Source of the DNA: a virus
Taxonomy: Duplodnaviria; Caudoviricetes
Reading direction: 5' to 3' (one strand)
IMG/VR virus record: IMGVR_UViG_3300018430_000021
Location: 32,001 to 96,000 of that record
Length of the DNA: 64,000 nucleotides
The position numbers and the translations under genes are program-made. Of the stretch, positions 1,555 through 55,270 are shown in pieces. The first letter of the stretch is position 1. Every line of letters begins with the position of its first letter. The notes under the pieces are model-generated. The model was not told the origin of the DNA, made no database searches, and saw only the letters and a list, made by a program, of their open reading frames with translations.

Positions 1555-2124
1555 ATGATAAAAAGATATAAGATAAGGACTTCTGCGACTTGGTGGGAGA
1601 AGGAAGGTGACCCGAACGTGTATGTCTACGGCAACGTCGACGCGGCCGGTGAACCTACGAATGACGGTTTCTTTAAAGACTCGACCAACAACGCGATCTT
1701 CCCTCGTGCACGCAAGAAGCTTCTCCGCACGGCCATAGTGGAGGAAACCCAGGCTTACAAGTTCTTTGAACAGTTCAACTACAGTTCCCAAAGGGATTCG
1801 GACGGTATGAGCGTCAAGCCTACAGGCGAGTTTCGCCGTTATGTCGATGTGGTTGGACGAAAGAAAACGACGGGCACGAAGTCCACGTATGTGAAGGGGG
1901 AATACAAGAGCCATACCTATAACACTACTGTGAACATCTACAAGCTGAACTGGGCTGGCCAGCAAAAGCGCGACGAACTGCGGAAGGAACAGAAACCGGA
2001 TTTGACGAGTGTCAACCAGCGTTTAGCTGAAGAGATCAAGCGTGCAGAAAAGGAATCCGCCCGGTTCTTCGGAGCCTATCACAACTGGAACGTCGAAAAC
2101 CTGCTCAGCAAGCTCGACATTTAA
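1555..2124 (+). CDS. Hypothetical protein with C-terminal tail (ENLLSKLDI)
   Basis: ORF with own promoter and RBS. Confidence 0.75.
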   Translation: MIKRYKIRTSATWWEKEGDPNVYVYGNVDAAGEPTNDGFFKDSTNNAIFPRARKKLLRTAIVEETQAYKFFEQFNYSSQRDSDGMSVKPTGEFRRYVDVVGRKKTTGTKSTYVKGEYKSHTYNTTVNIYKLNWAGQQKRDELRKEQKPDLTSVNQRLAEEIKRAEKESARFFGAYHNWNVENLLSKLDI

Positions 2125-2354
2125 TTTGATAAAAAATAAGTTTAACCCTTAACCCAAAATTACTATCTTATAAAGCATGTTGAATATCGAATGTTTAATG
2201 ATTGAAATTCCTGCGGGTTTTACGAAGCTCGCTGGAACAACGAAAGAAAAAATCTTAAATCTTTTCGTTTACAACTCAATCTTAAAATTCTATATTTAAC
2301 ACGTAAGCAATAACGCTTACAACGTTCAACAAATCAACAAAAGGAAATCTGAAT

Positions 2355-3509
2355 ATGAATATTGCTCAGCTCACCAAAGCCATCAAGTATCTGCCCACCC
2401 GTAAGTCCATTCTTCTCAAGGGTACCCACGGTATCGGCAAGACTGAATGGGTCTCTCACATGGCCGATGTCCTCGGTCTCAAGCTGGTCATCTGGCATGC
2501 AAGCCATGCTGCAGATGCTGGCGACATCACTGGTCTTCCTTTCCGCATCACTGAAACGGATGCTGAAACTGGCAAGAGCTACGAAGTGACTCGCTTTGCT
2601 AAGCCGCAGTGGATGATCCAGAACAAGCCGGTGCTTCTGTTGCTCGACGAAATCAACCGTGGCCTCAGCATCGCTTTGAATGCTATCATGCAGCTCACGA
2701 ACAACGGCACTTACGATGACATCAGCCTCCCTGAAGGTTCTCGCATCTTCGCATGTATCAACCCTGAAGAAGACGGTAAGTACGATGTGGGTACTATGGA
2801 CGCAGCTCAGCTTGACCGCTTTGCTATCTACGAATTCAAGCCGACTGTGGAAGAATGGCTTGAATGGGCTGTCAAGAAGGGTTTGGACTACCGTGTGACC
2901 GGGTACATCCAGAGCCATCCGACGAACCTCGACCCGTATACGAACCAGGAACTTGTCAAGTCTGTCCAGGGTCACGACTGTGCAGTTCTTCCTTCTCGTC
3001 GTTGCTGGGAACAGGTCAGCGACACCATCAAGAATGGTGAAGCTGATAAGGCTTGGGAAGGCGGTGAAGGTCACAAGCTTCTCACTGAAATTGTTGCTGG
3101 TCTCGTGGGCAGCGGAGCTGCTCTTGACTTCATCAGCTACTTCAAGGCTCAGGATAATGCACTCTCGCCGAAGATGTTGATGGAAGCTGAAAAGATTGAT
3201 GCTTCCCTGAAGCAGAAGATTGAAAAGCTCTGCAAGACCGACTTCCCGAACGCAGTCAAGCTCGTCGGTGGTTGCACGCTCTGGATGAAGGAACACGAAA
3301 AGGAAATCCCGGGCGAAGTCGGAGCTCGTATGGCTCACAACTTCTACGACGTCCTTGAAGCTCTCAACAAGGACACTCGAATCGCTGCGGTCAAGGACTG
3401 TGTGATTGAAGCTGTGAAGAAGCAGGAAGCTTGGGCCATCGGCATCAGCAAGCACGAATCTCGACTCAAGGCACTCTACAAGAATGCTATGATTAGCCGA
3501 GACCTGTAA
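2355..3509 (+). CDS. MoxR/dynein-related AAA+ ATPase
   Basis: Walker A GTHGIGKT, Walker B LLLLDEINR, sensor ACINP, LDRF arginine finger, PSRRCW. Confidence 0.9.
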   Translation: MNIAQLTKAIKYLPTRKSILLKGTHGIGKTEWVSHMADVLGLKLVIWHASHAADAGDITGLPFRITETDAETGKSYEVTRFAKPQWMIQNKPVLLLLDEINRGLSIALNAIMQLTNNGTYDDISLPEGSRIFACINPEEDGKYDVGTMDAAQLDRFAIYEFKPTVEEWLEWAVKKGLDYRVTGYIQSHPTNLDPYTNQELVKSVQGHDCAVLPSRRCWEQVSDTIKNGEADKAWEGGEGHKLLTEIVAGLVGSGAALDFISYFKAQDNALSPKMLMEAEKIDASLKQKIEKLCKTDFPNAVKLVGGCTLWMKEHEKEIPGEVGARMAHNFYDVLEALNKDTRIAAVKDCVIEAVKKQEAWAIGISKHESRLKALYKNAMISRDL

Positions 3510-3541
3510 GACTTGTGAGCCTTCGGGCTCTTTGTTGAACG

Positions 3542-3578
3542 AAAGGTGGTAGTCTGAAATATGACTACCACTTTTTTG
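3542..3578 (+). terminator. Intrinsic terminator
   Basis: ggtggtagtc-tgaaatat-gactaccact followed by T-run. Confidence 0.8.
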
Positions 3579-3831
3579 TACTCTTGAAAGAGTTATGCGA
3601 TCCCGGTCTAAACTCAATTTAAAGACTTGTTTATTTGACCAATATATTTTATTGTCTTTTTTAAAATAGGTCTTTAAAATGCGTTTATGGCTTAAATTTT
3701 TATATTATAAAAATATATCCACATAATATAAAAGACTTTCCCATTGCGATTCCGTAATAAAAAATCTTTGACTTTTTCATTTACGATTATTCCAAACTTT
3801 TCTATATTATAGACAAACAGTAGAGGTAATT

Positions 3832-5358: not shown

Positions 5359-5718
5359 ATGAAAGACTCCGATTACAAGATTGCCAATGAAATGACTGAT
5401 GAAAATTTGATTCAGCACATCCGCGATGCAGTTCCTGACTCTAAGGACAACATGCGAGCCAGTGACATCCTGAAAAAGGAACCGTACAACGGATCTCAGC
5501 GAACCATGCTGGCCAACAAGCAGCTTCGTGCGATTACTGACACGTCGAAGTTCTATCGTCGAGCCAAGGCTTTCCTGATGAAGGAAATCAACATCAGCTT
5601 CAGCGGTACCATCTTCAGTCACTGTAACACCATCGAAGCACAGAACTTCATCAAGTACACTCGGGAAATCGTGAAACGAAACCGTGAAACAATGGAGGCT
5701 CTTGACAGGCTGGATTAA
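5359..5718 (+). CDS. Hypothetical protein with C-terminal tail (ETMEALDRLD)
   Basis: Own promoter and RBS. Confidence 0.75.
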   Translation: MKDSDYKIANEMTDENLIQHIRDAVPDSKDNMRASDILKKEPYNGSQRTMLANKQLRAITDTSKFYRRAKAFLMKEINISFSGTIFSHCNTIEAQNFIKYTREIVKRNRETMEALDRLD

Positions 5719-7654: not shown

Positions 7655-8236
7655 ATGCTTATTTTAAATAATCCTAATCTGGTAAGGATGAGCCGACAAC
7701 ATGGATTCTGGTATGGCAAGATTCATATCAAGGTACAACGTTTTGACGTCTATGCCATCTTGACTACCAAAGAACATGGAAGCTGGAAAACTCCGCTTAC
7801 ACAGCCTGTGTTCGTTGAATACCGCAGACAGTTGAAAATCTGGTTACAAGAAGAACGTGTCAAAGCCGATGCGAGAAGCGAAGCACGAAAGAAGACACTT
7901 GCGGCGAACAAGGCTAACAGTCCTTGGACCGCATTCGAATGGCGTAAGAAGTTCCTGTTGGAAATGGGCTGGTATACGGATCGTGTCCGCGGTGGAAGTG
8001 CGTTCCAGTTCCATGAAGTCTTGCGACTTGCACCTGATGCTATCGACGAAAAGGCCAAGTGTTTCTACACCGGTTGTATTGACTTCGTGAGGAAACCTCT
8101 TGGAAGGTATGAAGCGAAGAGAATCTACTCGCCTGAATCGTATGCGGCGGCAATAGCCAAGGTAAAGGAAGACATGCTCGCAGAAAGCAAAATAGAATAT
8201 AACAAGACAATGAAGGCTATCGAGGCACTTGCGTAA
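7655..8236 (+). CDS. Hypothetical protein with C-terminal tail (KTMKAIEALA)
   Basis: Own promoter and RBS. Confidence 0.75.
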   Translation: MLILNNPNLVRMSRQHGFWYGKIHIKVQRFDVYAILTTKEHGSWKTPLTQPVFVEYRRQLKIWLQEERVKADARSEARKKTLAANKANSPWTAFEWRKKFLLEMGWYTDRVRGGSAFQFHEVLRLAPDAIDEKAKCFYTGCIDFVRKPLGRYEAKRIYSPESYAAAIAKVKEDMLAESKIEYNKTMKAIEALA

Positions 8237-9557: not shown

Positions 9558-9845
9558 ATGGAAATCAATAAGACTATTAAAATTAAACACGGCCGCGGCC
9601 AATCGATGCTAGAGTTAAAAATCCGCAACATTCTGGATGTCGTAAAATCGACGGGATATATCGAGCTTAGATTCTGGAGTCCGGAAGATAGCCATAAAAA
9701 GTTTTTATACATTTTCGACGACGAACCGATTACGTGGTACGACAAGGACGGTAACGAATCCACTGACTACGAGAAGTTGGTAGATACGTTGTCGGTTTAC
9801 GCCGAACAGACGAAACTAAAAGATGCCCTGGCAAGTCTGAATTAA
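9558..9845 (+). CDS. Hypothetical protein, leaderless, C-terminal tail (KDALASLN)
   Basis: ATG 6 nt after TATATT. Confidence 0.75.
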   Translation: MEINKTIKIKHGRGQSMLELKIRNILDVVKSTGYIELRFWSPEDSHKKFLYIFDDEPITWYDKDGNESTDYEKLVDTLSVYAEQTKLKDALASLN

Positions 9846-9915
9846 AACTCAATTAGATTTTGATTTACAAGACTTTTAGAATTTTCTATATTATAGTCAT
9901 GCAAGAGAGGTTAAA

Positions 9916-10275: not shown

Positions 10276-10674
10276 ATGAGCATTAACAAGACATCAAAAC
10301 TGCTTCGCATTCTTAAAACACATACTGGTCTGATTCAAACAAAGCCAGTCGGAAAGGAATTGAGGTTTGACTACAACTTTCAAGGGTTTCATCTGCCTGT
10401 TGTAGAACCGTATCTCATGAGTGAAGGTTATCTTCAAAAGAAGTATTTTTGGATTTATAACTTTTTTGACTATTCACACCTGCATGACTATTGCATGGAA
10501 GACATATTGTCTGGTAGAAATAATGTAAACAATAATACTGTATTCGTAGTCCAGTATGACAGGATGACAGTGCCCAAGCTGCCTAAGTTTATTGACCAAC
10601 AAATTGAATACATCCAAAAGGCTATCATGCGGTTTGAACAGCAAAAGATTGAAAAGGCATTGGATGCTCTGTAA
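10276..10674 (+). CDS. Hypothetical protein, leaderless, C-terminal tail (EKALDAL)
   Basis: ATG 6 nt after TATATT. Confidence 0.75.
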   Translation: MSINKTSKLLRILKTHTGLIQTKPVGKELRFDYNFQGFHLPVVEPYLMSEGYLQKKYFWIYNFFDYSHLHDYCMEDILSGRNNVNNNTVFVVQYDRMTVPKLPKFIDQQIEYIQKAIMRFEQQKIEKALDAL

Positions 10675-10747
10675 TAAAATTCTTTAAACAAATCGTTTCC
10701 AATCTTCTAACAATTTTCTATATTATGAATATCAACGAGAGGCTATA

Positions 10748-11127: not shown

Positions 11128-11424
11128 ATGAAACGAATCAAGATTGAACGCCTCACGGAAAAAGACTTATTTATCCCGTATGAGAAGATAGTTGGAGTAA
11201 CCGGCGGGCCAAGTACGATTCTGATAGATTACAAGACCGTCGACGATATGGGCTGGCATGTATGGCTCGCAAACGAGACCACGATGAGCTGGACAAGAAT
11301 CGACGACGACGGAAGCCAGGTAAAGAATACGCTGGTAACTAACGAGGATTTCAAGGCGTTTGTCGAATTCCTCACCGCAGTTGCCAAACAGAACGAGAGT
11401 GTCAAGGCGATAGAAAGTTTATAG
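11128..11424 (+). CDS. Hypothetical protein, leaderless, C-terminal tail (VKAIESL)
   Basis: ATG 6 nt after TATATT. Confidence 0.75.
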   Translation: MKRIKIERLTEKDLFIPYEKIVGVTGGPSTILIDYKTVDDMGWHVWLANETTMSWTRIDDDGSQVKNTLVTNEDFKAFVEFLTAVAKQNESVKAIESL

Positions 11425-12128: not shown

Positions 12129-12290
12129 ATGGACAAGGCTAAAGAAACAAAGAGAATGCGTGATGAAAGAATCAAAGAATCCGAAAACGGTCGCAAGCTC
12201 CGAACCAAAACTGTCCGAGACCGAACAAAGTATACCCGAAAAGGAAAACTTCGTTTTGACAGTAAAACAGGAGAGATACAACGGCCTTAG
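12129..12290 (+). CDS. Small basic protein (53 aa) with RDRTKYTRKGK motif, loosely ArfA-like
   Basis: Promoter and GAGAGG RBS before ATG 12129; not in the ORF track. Confidence 0.6.
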   Translation: MDKAKETKRMRDERIKESENGRKLRTKTVRDRTKYTRKGKLRFDSKTGEIQRP

Positions 12291-12510
12291 CCGCAACATC
12301 TACGCTGTTGACCTCGTGAAGATCGAAGAAGACGAATATGACCCGGAGGAATACGAACTGACCTATAACGGGCCGGGCGGAACACATACGTTGTCTATTC
12401 GTAAAAAGGACACGTACCTTGTCAACGGAAAGGAAATCCCTTTCGAAAAGGTACAGGCCTATCTCGAGAACCTGAGGACCGCTGCTGTAATCGATGCTCT
12501 CCCGGAATAA
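12256..12510 (+). CDS. Hypothetical protein with C-terminal tail (AAVIDALPE); start uncertain (TTG 12256 or GTG 12160)
   Basis: AAGGA RBS before the TTG. Confidence 0.6.
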   Translation: MTVKQERYNGLSRNIYAVDLVKIEEDEYDPEEYELTYNGPGGTHTLSIRKKDTYLVNGKEIPFEKVQAYLENLRTAAVIDALPE

Positions 12511-13233: not shown

Positions 13234-13340
13234 AGTTTATCCTCTAGTTGATTGGGACGGACGATCTACAGGATCGCCCGTCTTTTTATTTGGCAATATT
13301 TTATGTTTACGACTTCTATGTATTTTATTATATTTGGAAT

Positions 13341-13724
13341 ATGAGGTTATTACTAAACATTGAACAGATTGCAAAAGAACTTGGACTTGAATGCTGGAAC
13401 GAATCCGGTTTTGTCAATGTCCGAATCGGTATGGCTGACTGGGATGGGACAGGTATCGAAACCGACATGGTTATAAAATACTATCATGGACCATATACCG
13501 ACGAATGGGGTCATACCGCGATGAAACGTGAAGAATTCCAGTTGATAACTAGACAACTATTCCCCGGGTCTATATCTTTAAACTACATAGACAACGATGA
13601 CAAGCTTTTTTCGTTCTTGGCTGGGTTTATATTGGTCAAGAATGATATTGGCTCATGGAGAAAAAACTACATAACTGCCCAATATAACCGGGAAATGGAA
13701 GCGATGCTGGCGGTCCTGAGCTAA
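13341..13724 (+). CDS. Hypothetical protein, leaderless, C-terminal tail (EAMLAVLS)
   Basis: ATG 6 nt after TATATT at 13329. Confidence 0.7.
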   Translation: MRLLLNIEQIAKELGLECWNESGFVNVRIGMADWDGTGIETDMVIKYYHGPYTDEWGHTAMKREEFQLITRQLFPGSISLNYIDNDDKLFSFLAGFILVKNDIGSWRKNYITAQYNREMEAMLAVLS

Positions 13725-13778
13725 AAATTCTCTTCCGTTCCTGTTTACATCTTCCGAATATTTACCTATATTATAAGC

Positions 13779-14123
13779 ATGGAAGCAAAAGTAAGTTCTT
13801 TAACAAATGCACAGGTCAAACAGTTACGTGCAGAAGGTATATTGGATTCGGAAGGTGCATATAACCTGCCTACTTCATCGTTTTTTGAAGCACTTACTGT
13901 AAACAATATGCTTTGGGAGTATAAGGAAAGCGAGTTTGACAGTTGTTATCTAAAAAACGGTAGACTAGAGTGTAAGTTTGAGCCTGGCTCAGTACCTGTC
14001 GTTAAAAGTAGCCGTAAAGAGTTGTATAATTATGCGGTAACTGTGCATAAGAGGCTTTGGTCCATTTATAATAAGCTTCGCAACAAGGAACTGTTGGACA
14101 TGATTGATAAGAACCTGGGATAA
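13779..14123 (+). CDS. Hypothetical protein, leaderless, C-terminal tail (LDMIDKNLG)
   Basis: ATG 6 nt after TATATT. Confidence 0.75.
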   Translation: MEAKVSSLTNAQVKQLRAEGILDSEGAYNLPTSSFFEALTVNNMLWEYKESEFDSCYLKNGRLECKFEPGSVPVVKSSRKELYNYAVTVHKRLWSIYNKLRNKELLDMIDKNLG

Positions 14124-16663: not shown

Positions 16664-16984
16664 ATGATAACGTTAAAGCTAAGATATGATAAGACAGTTT
16701 CGTTGAATTCTCGAGTTTGTGACATAGAGAATATATCGATGGCGTTCAGTAGGGTACTGGACGAAGGGTATATCAATGTGACAAAGAAATGTGTCCCACC
16801 GATACAGATATATACGCCGCGAAACGTGGACCAACGGATTACATTTTACGATTCCGGACGGAAGATGAAGGAATTTGTTTTGCCGGCGAATTCGGGCGTA
16901 AAAACGTTAATTAACATGTGCGAACAGGTTAAAATGTTCAACGAGTACGCGAAGACAATCACTGCGATAGACAATCTGAAATAA
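16664..16984 (+). CDS. Hypothetical protein, leaderless, C-terminal tail (ITAIDNLK)
   Basis: ATG 6 nt after TATATT. Confidence 0.75.
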   Translation: MITLKLRYDKTVSLNSRVCDIENISMAFSRVLDEGYINVTKKCVPPIQIYTPRNVDQRITFYDSGRKMKEFVLPANSGVKTLINMCEQVKMFNEYAKTITAIDNLK

Positions 16985-17559: not shown

Positions 17560-18102
17560 ATGAAAAAGAAATACGAATTTACGGAAATTACCGTTAACGA
17601 TGCCGGATTCATCATGCATCAAATCCGAGCGCTCAAAGACTTCGATGACGTGAAAGCTGGTGACCTTGGCGGCTTTATCCTTAACGAAAGCAATCTGTCT
17701 CACAAGGGTAATTGCTGGGTCTATCCTGGTTCTTTCATCGGAAACAAGGCCAGAGTGACCGGCAATGCAAAGGTAAAAGGCAATAGTGTTGTTCGTAATA
17801 CGGCCAGGGTTTATGAAAATGCGGTCATTGACAACGGTGCGGATATTTACACCGCGGCTAGGATTCATGGCAATGCCTATGTTGGCGGTCAGTTAGAAGT
17901 TAACCGTTCAGAAATCTGTGGTGATGCTCATGTAGAAGGTCATGGTATCGGTTGCCATATCTCAGGGCAGACAGTTATCCGTGACAATGCACATGTATAC
18001 CTTGAAGAAATGTCCATCTATGGAAAGATTATCAAGGACAATGAAAAAGTTGTTAAGATTAAATCACATAAAGAAACGATGGAAGCCCTTGCCAAGCTGT
18101 AA
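17560..18102 (+). CDS. Hexapeptide-repeat (left-handed beta-helix, LpxA-like) protein, leaderless, tail (EALAKL)
   Basis: IRALKDFDDVKAGDLGGFI..NLSHKGNCWV and A-x-V-x-G-N repeats. Confidence 0.8.
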   Translation: MKKKYEFTEITVNDAGFIMHQIRALKDFDDVKAGDLGGFILNESNLSHKGNCWVYPGSFIGNKARVTGNAKVKGNSVVRNTARVYENAVIDNGADIYTAARIHGNAYVGGQLEVNRSEICGDAHVEGHGIGCHISGQTVIRDNAHVYLEEMSIYGKIIKDNEKVVKIKSHKETMEALAKL

Positions 18103-28241: not shown

Positions 28242-28318
28242 CCTCCTGGAAAGCCCGCGGGAAAAATTCCTGCGGGTTTTTTATTTACAAAACCTTCGGA
28301 ATTAATTATATTATAGTC

Positions 28319-33353: not shown

Positions 33354-33488
33354 ATGAAAACAAAAAGATTTTCCACATTCGATGTCATCTTAATCACTGC
33401 ATTCCTGTTCTTCCTGTACATTACCGGTCTTTGGAAGATTGTCGCCTTAATCGTGTTCATTCTTTTTGTCTGCTGGATGATGTCGTAA
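33354..33488 (+). CDS. Small membrane protein
   Basis: Own promoter and RBS; two hydrophobic segments. Confidence 0.65.
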   Translation: MKTKRFSTFDVILITAFLFFLYITGLWKIVALIVFILFVCWMMS

Positions 33489-40941: not shown

Positions 40942-41274
40942 TTATTTTCCCGGCAACGCATCGATAGCCAGCTCATTCTCCAGCCCGAGCAGACGCTGTA
41001 GCCAACCGTCACCGAATTTGACGATTTCCTGCAGGCGTAAATCTATCCGGCCGGCGTTAATATCGTTGAACGGTATCTGATAAACTCGGGTATCGAACCA
41101 GTCCTTCGCCGGCCCGGTATAGAGGATAAGCACAGCCTTCTGGTCCTGATCCCAGGACGGGCGATAATAACCTGTCCAGTCAACGTCCAGATTATAGACA
41201 ACGCCGGAAAGCTGGAGTCGTTTATTGATCTCGTCCAGCTTCTCGGCTATGTGCGACATAGGATAACCGGCCAT
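40942..41274 (-). CDS. Hypothetical protein with tail (LAIDALPGK); start uncertain
   Basis: Follows the 41279 gene. Confidence 0.65.
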   Translation of the reverse strand: MAGYPMSHIAEKLDEINKRLQLSGVVYNLDVDWTGYYRPSWDQDQKAVLILYTGPAKDWFDTRVYQIPFNDINAGRIDLRLQEIVKFGDGWLQRLLGLENELAIDALPGK

Positions 41275-41278
41275 AGAC

Positions 41279-41473
41279 TTATCCCAACAGGCTACCGATT
41301 CCGCCAACTACCCAAGTCGCACCGTGAGCTACGTTAGATACGATTCCCGTAGCCAGAGCCACGATGGAGTTGACCGACCCGCAGAAGGAACCTGTCACGT
41401 TACTGTTGGTGGTCATGGCTCCGATACCGAACAGGACCAGAAGGACGATGATGAGAACTTTGAACTTTGTCAT
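41279..41473 (-). CDS. Small membrane or exported protein
   Basis: Own promoter and RBS. Confidence 0.7.
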   Translation of the reverse strand: MTKFKVLIIVLLVLFGIGAMTTNSNVTGSFCGSVNSIVALATGIVSNVAHGATWVVGGIGSLLG

Positions 41474-42602: not shown

Positions 42603-42911
42603 ATGAATAACGAAGAATTGAATACATACGCAAACCGAATCGAAACCGCCGGCCTGAAGCGCGACGCGAAAGTAACCGACCTTCATCATTATGCCGTGGC
42701 CGTGGAAGTTACGCCGAAGACATACGGCGAAATAGTCGAAAGCATGCCCGACGCGTTCGAATACTGCTTCGACTACTTCGACCAGAAGGCCGACAAAGAA
42801 GAATCCGTCTTCATGTTCTACCTCGAAGACTGCAACGGCGAGGACGTCGACGCGATAGAAAACTGGCTGAAGACGCATACCGGCTGGCGGTCTTACGAAT
42901 ACAATGGCTAG
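42603..42911 (+). CDS. Hypothetical acidic protein
   Basis: Own promoter and RBS. Confidence 0.75.
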   Translation: MNNEELNTYANRIETAGLKRDAKVTDLHHYAVAVEVTPKTYGEIVESMPDAFEYCFDYFDQKADKEESVFMFYLEDCNGEDVDAIENWLKTHTGWRSYEYNG

Positions 42912-43013
42912 TCCGAAAGAAAACAATACAAGAAAAAGGTTTACAACTTCGTCCGGTTTTTCTATATTAATAACGTAAGCAATGTCGCTTACGTAAAACC
43001 GAACGAGGTTAAC

Positions 43014-43295
43014 ATGATTAAAAGCTTCAGCTATACCAACGCCAAGGGTCATACTACCGTAAGGATCTGTAACGTGGTACATGAAAACGAAACCGAGATT
43101 CGCGGGTTCGATTACAACAAGATGACCCGAGCGGAACAGGAAATCGTAAACAAGGTCTATCCCAACGACCACAAGCCGACTCCGTGTCCTACCGAATTCC
43201 ACAAGACGAGCGAGGTGGACTACGATTCACTCGGTATTCCGAAAGAACTGTTCTCGAAGGCCTACAGGGTTTTCAAGAAGAGCAAGTGTTTCTAA
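43014..43295 (+). CDS. Hypothetical protein
   Basis: Promoter, 5' hairpin, RBS. Confidence 0.75.
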   Translation: MIKSFSYTNAKGHTTVRICNVVHENETEIRGFDYNKMTRAEQEIVNKVYPNDHKPTPCPTEFHKTSEVDYDSLGIPKELFSKAYRVFKKSKCF

Positions 43296-43413
43296 CCTCA
43301 GTTGATAAGAATCTCCAGAATGTCGTGAGATATACTGAAGATTTTTTACTTGATTTTTTGGTTTACAACCTCTTCCAAATTTACTATATTATAAGTATCA
43401 ACAAGAGGTTAAC

Positions 43414-43788
43414 ATGAAAAAAGAAAATATCATCATCCATGAATGCACGAGCCGTAACGAAATCGAAAACCTTGGTTCTGCAGCAACCATCGAAGGACTC
43501 ACACTCGATTCGATTCCGAAGTATGTGGAACTCATCGAGAAGCTTGGTGGCAAGTTCAAGCAGAAGAGTGACGAGAAACTTACCGTATATGTAACCAGTG
43601 GTTTACAGATGAATAAGTCTTTCCGTCTGAAGGGAAGCAATGCATATCCTGATGACACGCACATCGTGTCCATCAAGCTTGAAGACTTCGACTACGAGAT
43701 GGACTTCTGCATCAACAGACTTCGCTTCGGTATCAGGTGGATGGATGACATTCTCGACAACAACCGCTGGCACAATCGAGGCAAATAG
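43414..43788 (+). CDS. Hypothetical protein
   Basis: Own promoter and RBS. Confidence 0.75.
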   Translation: MKKENIIIHECTSRNEIENLGSAATIEGLTLDSIPKYVELIEKLGGKFKQKSDEKLTVYVTSGLQMNKSFRLKGSNAYPDDTHIVSIKLEDFDYEMDFCINRLRFGIRWMDDILDNNRWHNRGK

Positions 43789-44321: not shown

Positions 44322-44714
44322 ATGTCGGATTATTATGATAATTACGAGAATTGTGAGAAATATCTGTTAGAACACGGATATACACGGTATAAGTGTAACG
44401 TGTTGGTTATAGATGCGTTGTTCAGCGTGATGTACCTTAAGGATTCCGACCATATGAAAATAAACCTGCTTTACGGGAAGAGCGGCGAACGGTGTAACAT
44501 GACTTGTTCTGTCAATTACAGCGGGAAGATGGGACCGCAGTTCTGGGAAAGGATCGCGTCTACATATGAGTCTCATGCCCGGGAGCATTTCAGGTTCCGT
44601 GTGGACAACGAGGATTTTCTTAGGCTGGTTGGCGATAACGACTATAATACAGTCGAGATGGCGTTCCGGAGGCACGAGATGGAGAAGTCGTTGGAGGTTC
44701 TGGATGGTGTATAA
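44322..44714 (+). CDS. Tandem paralog family member 1 (near-leaderless)
   Basis: C..L..GY, IASTY, FL..V, KSLEVLDG. Confidence 0.8.
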   Translation: MSDYYDNYENCEKYLLEHGYTRYKCNVLVIDALFSVMYLKDSDHMKINLLYGKSGERCNMTCSVNYSGKMGPQFWERIASTYESHAREHFRFRVDNEDFLRLVGDNDYNTVEMAFRRHEMEKSLEVLDGV

Positions 44715-45075
44715 CTGCGTTACGTGCCTGGACATGCTTATAAAGGCCGGATATAACATGGTAGATACGTACCATGTCGGCGAAGACAGTACCAAGCTGC
44801 AGTTCGAGAAGGATAACAGCATTGTGGCCGCGTATACCTATAACGGGAGTTCTAACGGTTCCGTGTGTATTATAATGTATTGTTCGATTTACGGGGAAGG
44901 TTCGTATACGAACGTGGCCTCTACGTACTGTACGGGCGACAGCGCGATATACGAGAACGTAGATACTGGGAAATTTCTGGAAATAGTGTGCAAATATCCT
45001 GCAATAGAATGGATGGAGAGGTTCCACGCTTACGACTTGGAAAGGAAACTGGAGGTTCTGGATGGAGGGATATAG
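44704..45075 (+). CDS. Tandem paralog family member 2
   Basis: CLDMLIKAGY, VASTY, FLEIVC, KLEVLDG. Confidence 0.8.
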   Translation: MVYNCVTCLDMLIKAGYNMVDTYHVGEDSTKLQFEKDNSIVAAYTYNGSSNGSVCIIMYCSIYGEGSYTNVASTYCTGDSAIYENVDTGKFLEIVCKYPAIEWMERFHAYDLERKLEVLDGGI

Positions 45076-45451
45076 GTCGCCGGATATTATAAAGGGCGAG
45101 TGTTTTCGGAAGCTTGAAACTAACGGTTTCGTAGACACTTACACTTACAGCAAGAGTACTCATCTTACGGGCTGGACGTTCACGAACGAGACATATCCGG
45201 AAAGGGGCTATATCATAGTCTATACCGGGAAGGAAGCCGGGATGAACGGCATAGCGATGGTTTGCGAGATTGGTTCCGGTGAGGACAAGGTGAACGTGGC
45301 GGCCACATACGAAAATCCTTTCAGCATGTACAAGCGGGTTCCGATAGACATATTCCTGGAAACGGTGTGTAAATATCCGACGAACGAATGGATAGAGCGG
45401 TTCCACGCGTACGACGTAAAGAGGACTCTGGAGGTACTGGATGGCGCTTAG
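45062..45451 (+). CDS. Tandem paralog family member 3
   Basis: VAATY, FLETVC, TLEVLDG. Confidence 0.8.
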   Translation: MEGYRSPDIIKGECFRKLETNGFVDTYTYSKSTHLTGWTFTNETYPERGYIIVYTGKEAGMNGIAMVCEIGSGEDKVNVAATYENPFSMYKRVPIDIFLETVCKYPTNEWIERFHAYDVKRTLEVLDGA

Positions 45452-45797
45452 TTACGAAATGGCGGAAAACATGCTATTAGGTAGCGGTTTCAAGGTTACG
45501 ACCGAGGCGCTCTGTACCAACGGCTGCGAGCTTATCATGTTCGGTAAAGAAAATACGGAAATTGAATGCTATAAGGGCGGTCAGCTCAATAAGGAGCTTC
45601 TGTTGATGTGTTCAATCTGGGACAAAAAGTCTTTGGCAAAGACACACGTGGCGGCGACGTTTACCAGCAGGTCGTGCATGTTCGTGCGTGTTTGCGAGGA
45701 AACATTCATGGATATAGTGTGTAGACATCCTGAGACGGAATGGATGACGCTGTTTAACGAGTATGACGTAAAGAAGACACTGGAGGTTCTTTCCTGA
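45441..45797 (+). CDS. Tandem paralog family member 4
   Basis: VAATF, FMDIVC, TLEVLS. Confidence 0.8.
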   Translation: MALSYEMAENMLLGSGFKVTTEALCTNGCELIMFGKENTEIECYKGGQLNKELLLMCSIWDKKSLAKTHVAATFTSRSCMFVRVCEETFMDIVCRHPETEWMTLFNEYDVKKTLEVLS

Positions 45798-46165
45798 TGG
45801 AACGTACTTTCGATTTTTGCAGCGAGATGCTGACATCCGGCGGTTTCGCGAGGCGGACTGACGGGGAATACGACCTGAGCGTTAGCATGAGGCTTATACA
45901 GTTCGAAAAGAAGGATATTATCATAAACTGTTACAAAGGCCCTCGAGATATATGCGACATGGGATGTTTCATTCGTACTCCCGGTACGGACGACTGGGAA
46001 CTTCTGGCGGCCACTTATTGTCCTGATGTTCAGAAGTTTACGTACGGCGGTGTCGACACTGACGATTTCCTGTCGATCATATGCGAAAACAGGGTTGACG
46101 AACTGCGGCAAAAATTCTATAATTACGATATTGAGAAAAAGCTTGAGGTCTTGAATGGAATTTAG
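45797..46165 (+). CDS. Tandem paralog family member 5
   Basis: LAATY, FLSIIC, KLEVLNG. Confidence 0.8.
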   Translation: MERTFDFCSEMLTSGGFARRTDGEYDLSVSMRLIQFEKKDIIINCYKGPRDICDMGCFIRTPGTDDWELLAATYCPDVQKFTYGGVDTDDFLSIICENRVDELRQKFYNYDIEKKLEVLNGI

Positions 46166-46535
46166 GCGCTGTAAGGAGATGATTATTGATGCCGGGTTTG
46201 AACCCAACTGGATTGGTTCCCTGAACGAGGAAACGACTATCCATGCGTTCTATAACGACTTTTTCTATCTCCAGGTATATTCGGACCGCCGCGAGACCGT
46301 AGTCCAGGGCATAGACTTGCATAAGTTCGATATTCCGGGTAACAGGAGATCGAAGACTTCCGCGGTCTGTACTACCTACAAGAATTTCGAGGGCGATATT
46401 CTGTTCAAGGGATTACACCAGAACATTGCCGGTGTCGTCAGGATTATATGCAACAACGCTGACCATCCCGAACGTATCAACTTGAAATTACAGGAATTTG
46501 TGGCGGACATGGTTTTGAGGCCGTTGGAAGGTTAA
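46155..46535 (+). CDS. Tandem paralog family member 6
   Basis: CKEMIIDAGF, VCTTY, IIC. Confidence 0.8.
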   Translation: MEFRRCKEMIIDAGFEPNWIGSLNEETTIHAFYNDFFYLQVYSDRRETVVQGIDLHKFDIPGNRRSKTSAVCTTYKNFEGDILFKGLHQNIAGVVRIICNNADHPERINLKLQEFVADMVLRPLEG

Positions 46536-46536
46536 T

Positions 46537-46941
46537 ATGAATATAGACGATCTTATCGAGAAGTTTGAACATTCGCTTACTCCGGAAGACGGAGAGAAGT
46601 ATACGGCTCGGCAGATTATCGCCAAACTGGGCGAGCATGGCTGGAAGAACGATATTAATGAATGTACGAACAACAAGCACGTGTTTTTAAAAGACAAGTA
46701 TCATTTTTTAATTACGCACACGAATATTAAGGAATACGATGACGGTTATCCGCTTATCAAGCTGTATAGTAACGACGTCCTTCTTACATCTTCCGGAACT
46801 GACATATTCGAGGAATTTAAAGGCGTATTTCCTGAAATTAACCCGACAGCGCTTACGAAATTGATTGAGAAAGATACGGATATTTACAACGAACTGAACG
46901 AGTACTTCGTAAATAAGGCTTTGAAAAATTTGGAAGGATAG
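46537..46941 (+). CDS. Tandem paralog family member 7
   Basis: LGEHGW, KALKNLEG. Confidence 0.75.
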   Translation: MNIDDLIEKFEHSLTPEDGEKYTARQIIAKLGEHGWKNDINECTNNKHVFLKDKYHFLITHTNIKEYDDGYPLIKLYSNDVLLTSSGTDIFEEFKGVFPEINPTALTKLIEKDTDIYNELNEYFVNKALKNLEG

Positions 46942-46942
46942 G

Positions 46943-47320
46943 ATGAGCTATACTGCTTTACAGATGTTTGATAAGCTTGAAAAGGCCGGGTATCATTGTT
47001 GTCACTGGTCCAATATCAAGCACGGTTATAGGAAAGGTGATTACTTGGTTGTCGTCATGCATGCCAGTTTATGGGGTGATAATCCAGGCGATGACAAATT
47101 TCCGCATGTCGAGATATATCGTAACGATACGCTTATCTGTGCATCGTATATTATCAAGAACCATAATTGGAGTAAGGCCATGATTCCTGTCGTACTTACG
47201 CCGGATGAGCTTTTGAATATAGCGGTAAATTTCAGCGATAACATATTTAATATCATTATGGAAAGGTATGTTGACATGACTTTGGAGAAACTCGATGAAA
47301 AACCGCAAGTTAAGTCATAA
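46943..47320 (+). CDS. Tandem paralog family member 8
   Basis: LEKAGY, ICASY, TLEKLD. Confidence 0.8.
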   Translation: MSYTALQMFDKLEKAGYHCCHWSNIKHGYRKGDYLVVVMHASLWGDNPGDDKFPHVEIYRNDTLICASYIIKNHNWSKAMIPVVLTPDELLNIAVNFSDNIFNIIMERYVDMTLEKLDEKPQVKS

Positions 47321-47666
47321 TTATGTTATTGAACGTATGCGTGGTACCGGTTATCGTATGACTTCGGATGAAACCGATGACGGTCTGGCAATGAAGTTCA
47401 CTACGTTTAAACGTAACAATCTTGAGCTTATTATACATTATGATTATTACAGCAGTATCGTAAAATCCATAAATGTCGACAAGCCGCCTAATACCAGTTC
47501 GCATTACCTGATAGCGACGACAACTCATGGGATATACGAATACGAGAATTGTGTCGAGATGAGTATTGACGAACTTTTCGATTATATTATAAGCTGTAAG
47601 ACGACTGAAGAACTGGAAATGAGAATTGAAATGCATGGTATGAAACAGGCACTGGAGTTGTTGTAA
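47295..47666 (+). CDS. Tandem paralog family member 9
   Basis: TGY, IATT, QALELL. Confidence 0.8.
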   Translation: MKNRKLSHNYVIERMRGTGYRMTSDETDDGLAMKFTTFKRNNLELIIHYDYYSSIVKSINVDKPPNTSSHYLIATTTHGIYEYENCVEMSIDELFDYIISCKTTEELEMRIEMHGMKQALELL

Positions 47667-48073
47667 TGGCTAATGGTCCAATATATCCGGAAAAGATGAA
47701 GTATTACATGAATAAACTCGAAAAAGCGGGTTATGAATATCGTCATGACCGTGATATTACAAGTGATGATGGACTTGTGATAACCGTTACTTATACAAGA
47801 AGTGATACCAACGACTTCTCTGAAATTATAATACATGTATATTATACTCGTAAAGTTAATAGATGTTATCTGACATGTAGTTTGCGTAATCCGCAAACCA
47901 ATATATGGCATTCCGCCTGTTCATTCGATGATGACCGAAATGCTTATCGTTTTAACGGTTTACATACAAGTACGCTTACCCGTATTCTATGTAACGGTAA
48001 AAATAATGACCAGATATTGATGGAATTGAATAAGGTTGAACTGAAGAGCGCCTTGGAGAAACTCGATGGATAA
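47666..48073 (+). CDS. Tandem paralog family member 10
   Basis: LEKAGY, ILC, SALEKLDG. Confidence 0.8.
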   Translation: MANGPIYPEKMKYYMNKLEKAGYEYRHDRDITSDDGLVITVTYTRSDTNDFSEIIIHVYYTRKVNRCYLTCSLRNPQTNIWHSACSFDDDRNAYRFNGLHTSTLTRILCNGKNNDQILMELNKVELKSALEKLDG

Positions 48074-48434
48074 GAAAAAACAAAGATCCGTTAATTATTA
48101 TATGGTCCATCTTACAAATGCTGGTTTTGAAGAAGACTCAAACGATTACGGTACGGCGGCTTTTAGTTTCCGTAAGTTTTATAAACCTGGATATGAAGTA
48201 TGGGTATTGAAAGATTATACAAACCAGCATCTTAATATATGTTGTGTAAAATGCGAGCGTGGTAAAGTACCAGAAATAAATATTGCTTGTACATATAAAA
48301 ATTCTACATTTATGGTAGAAAAAGCGGATTTGAATTCTTTATTTAAAATTATTTGTAAGCATGAACCGGAAACTTGGATAAAGATTTTTGCAGAATATAA
48401 TACAAACCGTATTTTAGGAGTTCTTGATGGATAA
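48066..48434 (+). CDS. Tandem paralog family member 11
   Basis: LTNAGF, IACTY, IIC, ILGVLDG. Confidence 0.8.
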   Translation: MDKKKQRSVNYYMVHLTNAGFEEDSNDYGTAAFSFRKFYKPGYEVWVLKDYTNQHLNICCVKCERGKVPEINIACTYKNSTFMVEKADLNSLFKIICKHEPETWIKIFAEYNTNRILGVLDG

Positions 48435-48791
48435 GCTTTTTCCGGAATGTAACCATTTGCTTATTGAAGCTGGATATGCTTATAATGGTTTGATGTGTGC
48501 TTGGGGTGATGTTAAGATACATGGATATAAAAAGGAAATCTTTATGTATCTATCAGTTTATTTGGCGAAGATATAAAGGATCTTGATATTACTTGTCATA
48601 TTGGTACAACAATGGTTGCTACGTCTTATACTAAAGATTCATTGTGTAACAACGATGCATTATTTTATTCAAATTTTTTAGAAATATTTGATATGGTTCT
48701 TCATCATGATGAAACCGATATTGTAAAGGCTTTTAGTGAGAAAGAATTAAATAAGACCTTGGAGGTTTTAGATGGCAATGATAACGCTTAA
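48427..48791 (+). pseudogene. Tandem paralog family member 12, frameshifted in the A-run at 48529-48533
   Basis: Frame 1 gives CNHLLIEAGY; the -1 frame gives VATSY and KTLEVLDG. Confidence 0.75.
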
Positions 48792-49131
48792 ACATTGTTA
48801 TAAGAAATTGCTTCATTACGGATTTAAATGTATAGAACATACTAAAGGTGCACACGAATGGGCTAAATTCGCAAAAGATGATATGACTATACACGTCTAT
48901 AATGATTATACAGAACAAACTAAAGTTTTCAGTATGTTATGTTTAATAAACGGTGAAAAGATTGCGCATACTCTTGGAAACGGTAATCATGCATCTTATG
49001 ACACAAGATATATGTTCAGTGGTTTTGAACATGAACAATTTTTAAATATAGTCTGCATCGGAAAAAGTAACGAAGTTTTAGAAACATTCCGAAAAATCGA
49101 TGTTGAACGAACGCTTAAGTTGTTACCTTAA
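48772..49131 (+). CDS. Tandem paralog family member 13
   Basis: CYKKLLHYGF, FLNIVC, TLKLLP. Confidence 0.8.
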   Translation: MAMITLKHCYKKLLHYGFKCIEHTKGAHEWAKFAKDDMTIHVYNDYTEQTKVFSMLCLINGEKIAHTLGNGNHASYDTRYMFSGFEHEQFLNIVCIGKSNEVLETFRKIDVERTLKLLP

Positions 49132-49169
49132 GGGTTTACAGTTTTATATTTTTTAATTATATTGTGATT

Positions 49170-49517
49170 ATGAAATACAAGAAATGCCGACAGATGTTAC
49201 TTGATGCTGGTTATTATGAGGTTAACTGGGCTGATCTTTATGTATGTCGTTTTCGAAAAGACCGTTATAAGGTAGTTGTATCACAAAATGAATCCGGTAA
49301 CGTAACACGTATTATTTGTTTTGATGAAAAAAATAAACTTGGTAAAGAAGGAAGACTTATTGACACAAAAACCGAAAAAGAACATAAAGACGGTATTTTC
49401 TTTCTAATTCACGGCATTTCAATGCAAGATACTTTGGATATGGTGTGCGGGGATCTTAATCGTCTTGAAGCAAAAATGAATAATTATCTTACATTGGAAG
49501 CCATAGAGAAACTATAA
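49170..49517 (+). CDS. Tandem paralog family member 14, leaderless
   Basis: Promoter 49135/49158; CRQMLLDAGY; EAIEKL. Confidence 0.8.
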   Translation: MKYKKCRQMLLDAGYYEVNWADLYVCRFRKDRYKVVVSQNESGNVTRIICFDEKNKLGKEGRLIDTKTEKEHKDGIFFLIHGISMQDTLDMVCGDLNRLEAKMNNYLTLEAIEKL

Positions 49518-49858
49518 TGCGACTCGAATATGTAAAAAACGTACTTGACAATAACGGTTATCATATCGACGATAAGTCGGGTTGGACTGTCGATGCTTCT
49601 CGAGGTAACATTAAAATCTATGCTACCTGTCCTTATGATAATATTGGAAATGTACAGCTTATAACCATTTATATTGATGATACGCGAGCTATTTCCAGTG
49701 TAAGCACGTATTATACAGATATTCCTAAAATGTTTAAGTATAATAATTTTGAACTTAACGAAATTATTGCCCTTATTGAAAACAGTAGAAATTCAGGCGA
49801 TTTACTTAAATATGCCGGTGAATGGACTACGGAGAAAATCTTAAATGTATTACAGTGA
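49517..49858 (+). CDS. Tandem paralog family member 15
   Basis: LDNNGY, KILNVLQ. Confidence 0.75.
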   Translation: MRLEYVKNVLDNNGYHIDDKSGWTVDASRGNIKIYATCPYDNIGNVQLITIYIDDTRAISSVSTYYTDIPKMFKYNNFELNEIIALIENSRNSGDLLKYAGEWTTEKILNVLQ

Positions 49859-50228
49859 AGATGACTATGGTTTAGGATGCGAAGCAAATGATGTATTAAA
49901 CCGGCTTATACGGGCCGGTTATCGATTTAATTTTTCCGATGTAAATTCCAGAGACGTTAGGCACATGTATAAAGATGATATAAACGTGTATATATCATTT
50001 CATACTAATAAAGGAAAAAGTTATGTCGATAGTATGCAATGCGTAAAAAATGAAGTAGGAATAGCTACTACATATAAAAAAGCATATGTTAATAGTTTGC
50101 CTATACAATATATGTTTTGCGAAGTTGACCCTATTACATTTATGACAATAGTATGCAATAAGACAAATAAGCTGGTTCAAGAATTCGCTGAATGGAACGC
50201 AGACAAGATATTGTCAAAACTTAAATAG
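49845..50228 (+). CDS. Tandem paralog family member 16
   Basis: LIRAGY, IATTY, FMTIVC, KILSKLK. Confidence 0.8.
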   Translation: MYYSEDDYGLGCEANDVLNRLIRAGYRFNFSDVNSRDVRHMYKDDINVYISFHTNKGKSYVDSMQCVKNEVGIATTYKKAYVNSLPIQYMFCEVDPITFMTIVCNKTNKLVQEFAEWNADKILSKLK

Positions 50229-51326: not shown

Positions 51327-51330
51327 ATCA

Positions 51331-52625: not shown

Positions 52626-53006
52626 ATGAAAGTTGAATATTTGACACAGGAACAGATAGAATCCCGAACAAAGGGGTTGCAGGATTATTTCCTGATTTTT
52701 GATAATAAACCGTCTGTTAAAGGATGTGTCATGTGTACATTGCCGTTAAACGATAAATCTTTAACTCATGACCTTGATAGGTATATGATGGATTTTTGGC
52801 GTGGAACACACCAGGTTCTTTACTCTACTTTCTGTGTAGCATGTAAGGAACCTTCTTTGATTGTCCACGATAACGGCCATGGAAATCGAGTTTACGAGAA
52901 GAATAATCAGTTTTGGATTGAAGATGTAAATATCGGTGAATATTACGATACGATTCGACAAAAAGTTGATAATTTGAAACTTGTTGAAATTATAGACGAG
53001 CTATGA
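52626..53006 (+). CDS. Hypothetical protein with tail (VEIIDEL)
   Basis: Promoter and GAGGT RBS. Confidence 0.75.
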   Translation: MKVEYLTQEQIESRTKGLQDYFLIFDNKPSVKGCVMCTLPLNDKSLTHDLDRYMMDFWRGTHQVLYSTFCVACKEPSLIVHDNGHGNRVYEKNNQFWIEDVNIGEYYDTIRQKVDNLKLVEIIDEL

Positions 53007-53586: not shown

Positions 53587-53589
53587 TCT

Positions 53590-54009
53590 ATGTTTGTTAC
53601 AGAAAATAGAGGAATAGATACATTTAGATATATTTTAAATGAAGCAAAAGCTGTAGGTTTTAAAGGTTCAATCAATCTTGCTCCGCAGAAAGGACTTTGT
53701 TTAAATACATTGGTATATGACGTTCCAAATGGACAGCTTACATTGAAATATTTTTTAACACAGACAAGTGAAGACGAACCTATTGTTGGAAACATGTGGT
53801 TGAATTTTTCATCTATGGTACCAATGTATGATAGACAGTTGATTTCACTTTGCGGCGGTTATGCTGATAATAATGTAGGCCCGAAAGTTTTTGTTGATTT
53901 ATTGAAGCATATCGATACCATAAAAGACCATTTAAAAATCGGCGAAGATGATGAAGAAATAGCCATACAAAAATGGATAAATGATTCATGTTTTGAGGCG
54001 TTGGATTAG
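53590..54009 (+). CDS. Hypothetical protein with tail (SCFEALD)
   Basis: Operonic. Confidence 0.75.
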   Translation: MFVTENRGIDTFRYILNEAKAVGFKGSINLAPQKGLCLNTLVYDVPNGQLTLKYFLTQTSEDEPIVGNMWLNFSSMVPMYDRQLISLCGGYADNNVGPKVFVDLLKHIDTIKDHLKIGEDDEEIAIQKWINDSCFEALD

Positions 54010-54039
54010 CACAATTTTTGCTATATTTAAGGAGAGATT

Positions 54040-54525
54040 ATGAACCACATTGAACTAGACAATCAAGCAGTAGAAATCGTTTTCGAAAATTGTGAAACGA
54101 TTAATATCGATATGTGGGCCATAAAGTCTCTTACTTTCGATACCGTTTGTGATAGATATATCTGGGATGAACATCATAAGAATTTTATAACATCGACCAT
54201 CATTACTGATATAAAAATGGTTTTCGATATTCGTGACTGGAAAGATTTTCATCATACTGCGAGATTAATCGACACAAAAACATTAAAAGAAGACGGTGAA
54301 AAATGTATTGACCGTCTTAGATTTAGTGACGATATTACACATATTGTCATTAACGGTAAATCGTTTACTATTCCGTGGAAACGTACTGAAGCTGGAAAAG
54401 ATTCATTAGGTATTCCTTGGTATAAGAATGTATTGCAGAAAAATACAGAGTCAACTAATACACATGACGGGCATCAACTGTTAACTATTGAAGTGAAAGG
54501 CGTACCAAAAGAATGTATGGAATAG
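54040..54525 (+). CDS. Hypothetical protein (FENCE motif)
   Basis: AAGGAG RBS. Confidence 0.75.
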   Translation: MNHIELDNQAVEIVFENCETINIDMWAIKSLTFDTVCDRYIWDEHHKNFITSTIITDIKMVFDIRDWKDFHHTARLIDTKTLKEDGEKCIDRLRFSDDITHIVINGKSFTIPWKRTEAGKDSLGIPWYKNVLQKNTESTNTHDGHQLLTIEVKGVPKECME

Positions 54526-54896
54526 CTATTGCCAATAAAGATTTTAAAAATCCATTGGATCAAATAAAAGAAAAATTTGAAAGTTATAAAGGCACTAATA
54601 GAATACAATTCTTTGCTAATATTAGTGCTGATTATATAGTTTTTTGCAATGCAGTTATTACCTACGATTTTGCGAATATCCGTATTTATTTAAGAGCGGC
54701 ATTACGATTAAATGAAGAATTTTATGTAACTGTAGTTAATGGCGGTAATAGACTTTATGAAAGAATTTGTAAACTGGACGAATTGTATGAAGTTATGGAT
54801 GAGTTTGTTTACACGATTAAATCCATAGCATTTAAAATTGGTGTTATTGAATTTATGGAATATTGGAAAAATTTAAGCGCGGTAGATAACTTATGA
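54513..54896 (+). CDS. Hypothetical protein with tail (LSAVDNL)
   Basis: Overlapping operon. Confidence 0.7.
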   Translation: MYGIAIANKDFKNPLDQIKEKFESYKGTNRIQFFANISADYIVFCNAVITYDFANIRIYLRAALRLNEEFYVTVVNGGNRLYERICKLDELYEVMDEFVYTIKSIAFKIGVIEFMEYWKNLSAVDNL

Positions 54897-55270
54897 TAAT
54901 TGATAATATAGATTATTCTGTAACTGAAATACGAGAAATGATTAGACGTTTTCTCGTTGAAAAAGGATATGACCCTAACGGCGACTGGTATTTTTTAAAG
55001 CCGAGGGGAGTTATTGATATACGTATAAATCCCGTTTGTACATATTCATATAATACTACACCTGGTATTCCTAACGAACGTGTAGACGTATATTTTAACG
55101 GCGTTATAAACGGAAAAGGCGATTTTATTTGTTATAAAATATATACACCCGAAGACTTTAAAGAGGTCTTAGGTTTTATTGAACGTATAGGCGAAGCTGC
55201 AGCTTCTGAAGAACGCCTTAAGGCGATTTATTCAAATTTGGAAGATGTAATTAAGGTTGGGCAGTTATAG
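54893..55270 (+). CDS. Hypothetical protein with tail (VIKVGQL)
   Basis: ATGA overlap. Confidence 0.7.
   Translation: MIIDNIDYSVTEIREMIRRFLVEKGYDPNGDWYFLKPRGVIDIRINPVCTYSYNTTPGIPNERVDVYFNGVINGKGDFICYKIYTPEDFKEVLGFIERIGEAAASEERLKAIYSNLEDVIKVGQL

Follow-up and report, generated by a model that had tools for sequence, protein, structure and literature searches.

In phage T4, hypervariable and otherwise unrelated internal proteins, encoded in a plastic region of the genome, share a short terminal tag, the capsid-targeting sequence. This tag sits at the N-terminus of late proteins and loads its bearers into the head; the head protease removes it by cleavage at L-x-E. Poxvirus ankyrin proteins carry a folded, F-box-like (PRANC) domain of ~40 residues at the C-terminus, and their hub is the host SCF. 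T4 also uses clamp-binding motifs that are portable and interchangeable (PMC2988020; PMC7892883), and in the NorQD system the C-terminus of NorD, a vWA protein, docks on the ring of NorQ, a MoxR-type AAA+ protein (PMC13036017). Here we analyze a 64,000-nucleotide stretch of phage DNA (the window; positions 32001–96000 of IMG/VR record IMGVR_UViG_3300018430_000021, hereafter G000), in which many small proteins end in a similar short peptide with the consensus h-x-x-[AT]-[LI]-[DE]-x-L, which we call the tag. A literature search returned no description of such a tag.

The G000 record is 291,102 bp long and estimated to be 70% complete, so that the whole phage would measure ~420 kb. The phage is T4-like, encoding a gp44/gp62-type clamp loader, a clamp (G000:3538-4275, minus strand), a gp32-type protein and a gp55-like sigma factor. 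A codon-usage model called 406 open reading frames (ORFs) in the record. About 40% of the G000 proteins have homologues, at ~47–50% identity, in two complete relatives of 416 kb (G002) and 424 kb (G003), whose MoxR proteins are 45–51% identical to that of the window. Megablast of two window pieces against a phage collection gave no match.

A shared motif at the C-termini of small proteins

Across the window, 31 ORFs carry a clear tag (matrix score ≥8) that lies 0–6 residues before the stop, and about six more are borderline, among them those starting at 12160, 21019, 46155 and 46943. The original prediction, made from the letters and an ORF list, counted 35–40 tagged proteins and was thus slightly generous; the C-termini that it listed are present in the sequence, and its coordinates are gene starts. 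In the whole record, 49 C-termini are tagged (about 1 in 8 proteins), and the proteins that bear them are small, fast-evolving, non-late and drawn from unrelated families. At position x the tag has K, V, S or N. The core favors an acidic residue, with Ala replacing it in some tags (A-L-A-x-L), and the position after the final Leu is not conserved.

Overall, the motif is enriched 15–45-fold at C-termini relative to internal positions. The regular expression of the original prediction matches 19 times within 5 residues of a C-terminus, where 1.2 matches are expected from its internal frequency; A[LI][DE].L gives 11 C-terminal matches against 0.24 expected, and stricter versions of the expression reach 29–45-fold. 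An iterated matrix selected 49 C-termini against ~2.8 expected. Because the training of this matrix is circular, a second was built from only 13 solitary window examples. Outside the window, the hold-out matrix found 14 C-terminal matches versus 2.0 expected (p = 2e-8); it matched 7 of 23 C-termini in the 19–32 kb block and 6 of 16 in a paralogue array at 44322–50228. A de novo scan in a reduced alphabet, blind to the earlier definition, likewise placed [ATS][LIVM][DE].[LIVM] among the top C-terminal patterns (29 versus 6.5 expected). Roughly 1000 ORFs from 14 loci of other phages contained no tag match, and the complete relatives G002 and G003 show no tag enrichment. With this strong enrichment over internal segments, the shared C-terminal motif is confirmed as real and positional.

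Selection on the encoded protein

A motif this close to the stop codon could be a by-product of DNA signals, namely promoter upstream elements or the ribosome-binding site (RBS) and start codon of the next gene, a caveat already attached to the original prediction. Sigma-70-type early promoters (TTTACA-N17-TATATT) lie ~20 nt past the stop of most small genes, and stops stand 18–21 nt ahead of the next −35 box. In the array, L-E-V-L-D-G is encoded by TTGGAGGTTCTGGATGG, a stretch that includes both GGAGG and the ATG of the following gene; a GAAGGA box arises from L-E-G together with the stop. There, one DNA stretch thus serves two purposes, and the overlap may account for the x-Gly ending of the array tags, although not for the motif as a whole. 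Identical tag residues, array included, use the same codon 0.30 of the time, against a prediction of 0.34 from codon usage. Every one of the six Leu and four Ala codons occurs, and the motif reaches 30 nt upstream of the stop. Moreover, 24 tagged genes have at least 40 nt between them and the next gene. Because codon sharing does not exceed codon usage and these 24 genes stand free, selection acts on the tag at the protein level. The motif hence persists under free synonymous variation, the overlap caveat holds for tightly packed arrays only, and the explanation by DNA signals is largely refuted.

The spacers have a recurrent layout of their own. At 9846–9915, 10675–10747, 13725–13778 and many other places, the early-gene stop stands 18–21 nt upstream of the next −35 box, followed by an A-rich stretch, and several downstream genes start directly past the −10 box, apparently leaderless. 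At 44670–44714, 45028–45075 and 48393–48434, within the array, codons of L-E-V-L-D-G or I-L-G-V-L-D-G hold the Shine-Dalgarno sequence and ATG of the next gene.

A portable module at the end of a helix

The tag terminates a ~20-residue C-terminal helix on at least five families without other detectable similarity. When the last 15 residues were removed, BLAST linked only a few pairs of proteins. When the array family (family A) was compared by hhalign with a second tagged family at 19.9–25.3 kb of G000 (family B) and with 269 further small proteins, only the terminal 9–20 residues aligned. Shared ancestry of the bodies thus found no trace by either method past the last ~20 residues, and one tagged body belongs to a different fold family. 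This is an LbH (hexapeptide-repeat) protein of 180 amino acids (aa; 17560–18102, plus strand), to which the tag is appended at codons 18067–18099 (score 21.6). PHROG phrog_5070 aligns with residues 1–164 of 180, leaving the tag outside the region of homology; in other phages, 12 homologues have different ends that lack a tag. Taken together, these comparisons support the original view of the tag as a portable module, and selection on this module is likewise supported.

Structure models are consistent with this. Array member 4 of family A (45441–45797; AlphaFold2 predicted local confidence, pLDDT, of 94) is modeled as helix α1, five strands, a short helix and a 20-residue terminal helix (residues 98–117) that ends in the tag. 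The family B model (pLDDT 64 overall, ~80 at the C-terminus) shows four strands with a single terminal helix of 20 residues. In the 26-residue segments that finish with the tag, Pro+Gly make up 2.7%, versus 8.0% in untagged C-termini. Models, hhalign results and Pro/Gly content together indicate that the tag closes a long helix in families whose predicted architectures differ. Foldseek searches of the PDB and BFVD with the family A model returned no significant match, the ESM Atlas held no named cluster for the family, and VIA-align reached a Z of 6.4 at best, its weak rows for HicA and an Rhs immunity protein lying within noise. Pfam and PHROGs assigned a function only to LbH, DUF2201 and MoxR among 27 tagged or neighboring proteins.

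A helix end of this kind may simply be structural, a possibility that we regard as real but doubtful and as the main rival to a docking role. The tagged proteins would then descend from a few ancient β-sheet-plus-terminal-helix families, the LbH case would be a fusion at the 3′ gene end, and the conserved residues would pack the helix on its own sheet or build homo- or hetero-oligomers among tagged proteins, with no common partner. Families A and B are indeed both modeled as a sheet followed by a ~20-residue, tag-ended helix (helix pLDDT 91–98 and ~80, respectively), the segment is poor in Pro and Gly and rich in helix formers, and the Pro or x-Gly past the last Leu resembles a helix stop. The promoters repeated ~20 nt past the stops could also promote recombination at 3′ gene ends. 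However, conservation of the same residues (Ala/Thr, Leu/Ile, Asp/Glu, Leu) across otherwise dissimilar families exceeds what packing needs, and the pattern is not seen in internal helices of the same proteome. Relatives have comparable small proteins without the tag, and the two modeled folds differ (α1-β5-α-α versus four strands and one helix).

Distribution among lineages and timing of expression

Identity across orthologue pairs is 49% in the last 14 residues and 37% in the body (p = 0.003). Many further genes of several sizes bear the tag on contig L081, which comes from a near-identical relative, and on the more distant sister contigs L017/L021 and L080. The stretch that L081 covers is missing from G000, and the L081 clamp is 94% identical to the G000 clamp. 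Only 5 of the 49 tagged proteins have a homologue in G003, versus 43% of all proteins, and conserved early proteins are untagged. The tagged genes are lineage-specific, and the tag is specific to one lineage.

Family A illustrates how fast the bodies change. Its profile recovered 46 cluster representatives among 1.8 billion proteins, all tag-ended except a few truncated or frameshifted copies. Across 41 aligned members, no column is invariant or nearly invariant except those of the two tag leucines, the start Met and one N-terminal Gly. Contig L020 (2452–9362), from a closely related phage, is syntenic with the array region of the window and keeps the tags; array orthologues are 27–41% identical, whereas flanking genes are 77–96% identical. 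This difference implies that evolution of the array bodies is very fast and probably diversifying.

By crude promoter calls, 16 of the 126 genes in early-promoter units are tagged, versus 0 of the 103 genes in TATAAATA late-promoter units (Fisher p = 8e-5). Because the tag is missing from late units, loading into the virion for injection, one of the functions first proposed, is disfavored and appears unlikely.

The untagged relative G002 has a shared C-terminal peptide of its own, (L)P-x-V-P-K-G-I-L-K-I-P, which ends no fewer than 18 small proteins encoded in two clusters (G002:10678-13381, equivalent to L052:10678-13381, and G002:344455-352285, equivalent to L069:4455-12285). These proteins are 108–190 aa long and of several N-terminal types, and the peptide follows a Pro-rich stretch. 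The principle thus recurs with a different label.

In the tagged lineage, PolB is encoded past the left end of G000. On readable PolB contigs no tagged gene occurs within 10 kb of PolB, and these contigs therefore are not assignable to the tagged lineage. In the relatives represented by L075 (4518–9447), L076 and L077, the PolB neighborhood encodes Cpn10, SpoVG-like, ClpP-family and eIF-1A-like (PF01176) proteins.

A possible docking element for a shared partner

We tentatively read the tag as a common docking element, or address label, for one shared partner, with a rough probability of 0.45 that includes the special cases of a clamp, a protease or a MoxR protein as reader. Unlike its existence, position, protein-level selection, occurrence on otherwise dissimilar families, absence from late genes and lineage specificity, binding by the tag is something we infer. 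The tag is the last two to three turns of a ~20-residue C-terminal amphipathic α-helix, with hydrophobic residues at i, i+3/4 and i+7, a small residue ahead of the first Leu/Ile, an acidic residue after it, and frequently a stop at Pro or x-Gly. Through this surface, dozens of early or middle accessory proteins, lineage-specific and quick to diversify, would engage one partner, while their variable bodies would do different jobs. The partner is more likely a host factor or a lineage-specific phage protein than one of the conserved phage machines.

Four points weigh against docking. The distance from tag to C-terminus ranges from 0 to 8 residues and is not constant. The tag sits in a confidently modeled long helix, in a Pro/Gly-poor segment, and for this reason may be partly buried and structural instead of a free peptide. 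The small β-sheet-plus-helix families may conceivably share a very old ancestry beyond the reach of sequence methods. Finally, a search for a hub among proteins common to the tagged lineages but absent from G002 and G003 gave no nameable candidate, yielding only small unannotated proteins (42603–43788) and a 353-aa protein (55660–56721, minus strand); no hub of the kind first predicted emerged.

More broadly, and as a guess we would hold only loosely, huge T4-like phages may run lineage-specific address-label systems, the label being [AT]-[LI]-[DE]-x-L here and P-K-G-I-L-K-I-P in G002. One interchangeable label would plug a large and rapidly diversifying set of early effectors into one undescribed hub, for instance a host machine or a phage scaffold, and effector bodies would be swapped while the single interface stays.

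If one partner reads the tag, it would provide a single handle on 50–60 otherwise unannotatable early proteins per genome, which would constitute a fast-evolving host-takeover or counter-defense layer of huge phages. The tag could also be used to search related metagenomic phages for accessory genes. The different label in the sister phage suggests a general, so far undescribed, way in which large phages organize accessory proteins. Should the tag prove only structural, it would still mark a large group of small families that end in a helix and experience strong diversifying pressure.

MoxR, GroEL and protease as candidate readers

GroEL and a pair of genes, a DUF2201 metallopeptidase/vWA-like gene (41–1417) and a MoxR-type AAA+ gene (2355–3509; both plus strand, assigned by Pfam), were the hubs first suggested. 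All are conserved at 37–64% identity in G002 and G003, which lack the tag, and are for that reason poor hub candidates. That the MoxR/vWA-like pair reads the tag is, in our estimate, very improbable, even with the precedent of NorQD, in which the vWA protein uses its extreme C-terminus to dock on the MoxR-type ring (PMC13036017), and with a tagged gene situated between the two genes of the pair (1555–2124, plus strand; 189 aa; tag codons 2083–2115; score 13.9). The tag stands at no fixed distance from the C-terminal carboxylate, and the vWA-like protein of the window itself ends without a tag. The likeness to NorQD consists of a hydrophobic C-terminus that a MoxR-type ring would read and of the MoxR/vWA-like pair in the window. 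NorQD, however, has one client, with essential last two residues and a fixed register, whereas the tag has many clients and a variable register.

Alternatively, the tag could be a C-terminal degron through which a protease would clear early proteins on schedule, a further special case of docking that we consider rather improbable. Tagged genes are early and never late, the A-L-A-x-L tags faintly recall ssrA-type ends, and relatives encode a ClpP-family protein near PolB, with a 202-aa homologue in G000. Yet the hallmarks of ssrA-like signals, a fixed extreme C-terminal position and an L-A-A or similar non-polar end, are missing from the tag, which varies in register, prefers an acidic residue and never closes on L-A-A. 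Lineages without the tag possess the ClpP-like gene too, and it may encode a head protease.

Tagged genes of the window

Outside the array, tagged genes are spread over most of the window; those below are on the plus strand unless stated, with length, tag codons and score in brackets. The gene at 5359–5718 (119 aa; 5680–5712; 20.1) has homologues in G002 and G003 that end otherwise. The gene at 7655–8236 (193 aa; 8198–8230; 17.2) is paired by BLAST with a paralogue at 26268–26891 (207 aa; 26850–26882; 13.8). Three short genes follow the first of these, at 9558–9845 (95 aa; 9807–9839; 16.4), 10276–10674 (132 aa; 10639–10671; 20.8) and 11128–11424 (98 aa; 11389–11421; 16.2), and then a borderline case at 12160–12510 (116 aa; score 0.4) in which the I-D-A-L core is present. 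Next come 13248–13724 (158 aa, start uncertain; 13686–13718; 16.2), 13779–14123 (114 aa; 14082–14114; 12.4) and 16664–16984 (106 aa; 16946–16978; 9.7).

Downstream of the LbH gene, 20493–20915 (140 aa; score 9.2) is weakly tagged and its G002 and G003 homologues are untagged, and the borderline gene 21019–21432 (137 aa; score 3.7) forms a BLAST pair with its paralogue at 28211–28711 (166 aa; 28673–28705; 12.1). At 22284–22631 (115 aa; 22581–22613; 15.5) the tag is followed by five more residues. The gene at 33431–33874 (147 aa; score 7.4) has a weak tag, and the one at 40942–41307 (121 aa; 40954–40986; 14.6) is on the minus strand. Past the array lie 52626–53006 (126 aa; 52971–53003; 13.7), with a homologue on L017 that is tagged too, and 54513–54896 (127 aa; 54861–54893; 14.4).

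The family A array, all on the plus strand, had been taken as 16 members; it consists of 15 full-length genes and one copy split into two ORFs. Members 1 to 3 occupy 44322–44714 (score 11.4; included in alignments A2 and A4), 44704–45075 (16.4; its ATG lies inside the tag codons of the preceding gene) and 45062–45451 (17.2). The modeled member 4 is followed by member 5 at 45797–46165 (18.1), member 6 at 46155–46535, which has a degenerate tag that scores under threshold and is aligned in A2, member 7 at 46537–46941 (14.1), and member 8 at 46943–47320 (4.6), whose tag precedes 8 further residues. Members 9, 10 and 11 are at 47295–47666 (12.3), 47666–48073 (16.4) and 48066–48434 (15.2). The broken copy (48424–48791) comprises ORFs at 48424–48576 (50 aa) and 48612–48791 (59 aa), the latter being C-terminal and still tagged; P0027 is an intact 120-aa relative of this copy. 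Members 13 to 16 complete the array at 48772–49131 (13.1), 49164–49517 (18.2), 49517–49858 (18.4) and 49845–50228 (14.0). Array proteins from 45441 to 50228 open with a helix ending in L-x-x-x-G-[YF], and a similar motif opens the 353-aa protein at 55660–56721 (minus strand).

Family B also forms an array. On L081 (8090–11959), beyond the left end of G000, at least 11 family B genes of 89–116 aa adjoin clamp-loader genes; most end in the tag plus Pro, and their CCA TGA ending overlaps the ATG of the following gene.

Comparison with known systems

Judged by sequence, the nearest known counterpart of the tag is the T4 sliding-clamp-binding motif of gp43, gp55, gp33 and DNA ligase. It resembles the tag as a short, portable C-terminal element on otherwise unrelated T4-type proteins, and the tag shares its core, [ST]-L-D-x-L at 1–5 residues from the end. 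In the T4 record AF158101, gp43 ends in S-L-D-F-L-F-G, gp55 in S-L-D-F-L-Y plus four residues and gp33 in T-L-D-F-L-L, and all three ends satisfy the regular expression and position rule of the original prediction. The tag could accordingly be imagined as a degenerate clamp-binding motif that tethers accessory proteins to the gp45-like clamp; the phage encodes both clamp and clamp loader, and tagged arrays adjoin clamp-loader genes in L080 and L081.

We nonetheless hold this special case of docking to be unlikely. The T4 motif has Phe at x and Phe, Tyr or Leu after the second Leu, whereas the tag is devoid of aromatics in this anchor. The T4 motif follows a flexible linker (T4 tails contain 14–16% Pro+Gly), whereas the tag is the end of a continuous modeled helix with its 2.7%. 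The T4 motif occurs on replication and late-transcription proteins, whereas the tag occurs on ~50 accessory ORFan proteins. Clamp-type tails of the phage's own kind keep FF, IF or FY, which tags never have. In relatives, PolB has the C-terminus L-[DE]-x-[FI]-F-x, and a conserved protein of 126–137 aa (G000:8737-9146, minus strand; L080:5206-5619), encoded between DnaB-like helicase and gp32-like genes, ends in D-L-S-E-F-F-x. The gp55-like late sigma factor (61674–62354, minus strand) has a clamp-binding-like G-L-D-F-Y in its C-terminal region, the same in the tag-less G002 and G003. The original prediction had rightly listed sigma among core genes without the tag and had overlooked this separate element. 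Because it has neither aromatics nor a linker, the tag, as far as sequence can tell, is not a member of the clamp-binding class. The 126–137-aa protein, which the codon-usage ORF calls missed, may be a gp33-like protein or another clamp client.

The two remaining systems resemble the tag in organization. The T4 capsid-targeting sequence is likewise a short terminal tag shared by variable, otherwise unrelated proteins; it differs in being N-terminal and late, whereas the tag is C-terminal, occurs on none of the late-unit genes and does not show the combination of N-terminal position, late expression and L-x-E protease site that marks a capsid-targeting sequence. The PRANC proteins of poxviruses differ in that their C-terminal element is a folded domain with a known hub, in a eukaryotic setting, and bears no sequence relation to the tag. 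By analogy, however, they offer a likeness: large, fast-evolving viral paralogue families in which a variable target-binding body is joined to a conserved C-terminal element that serves one hub.

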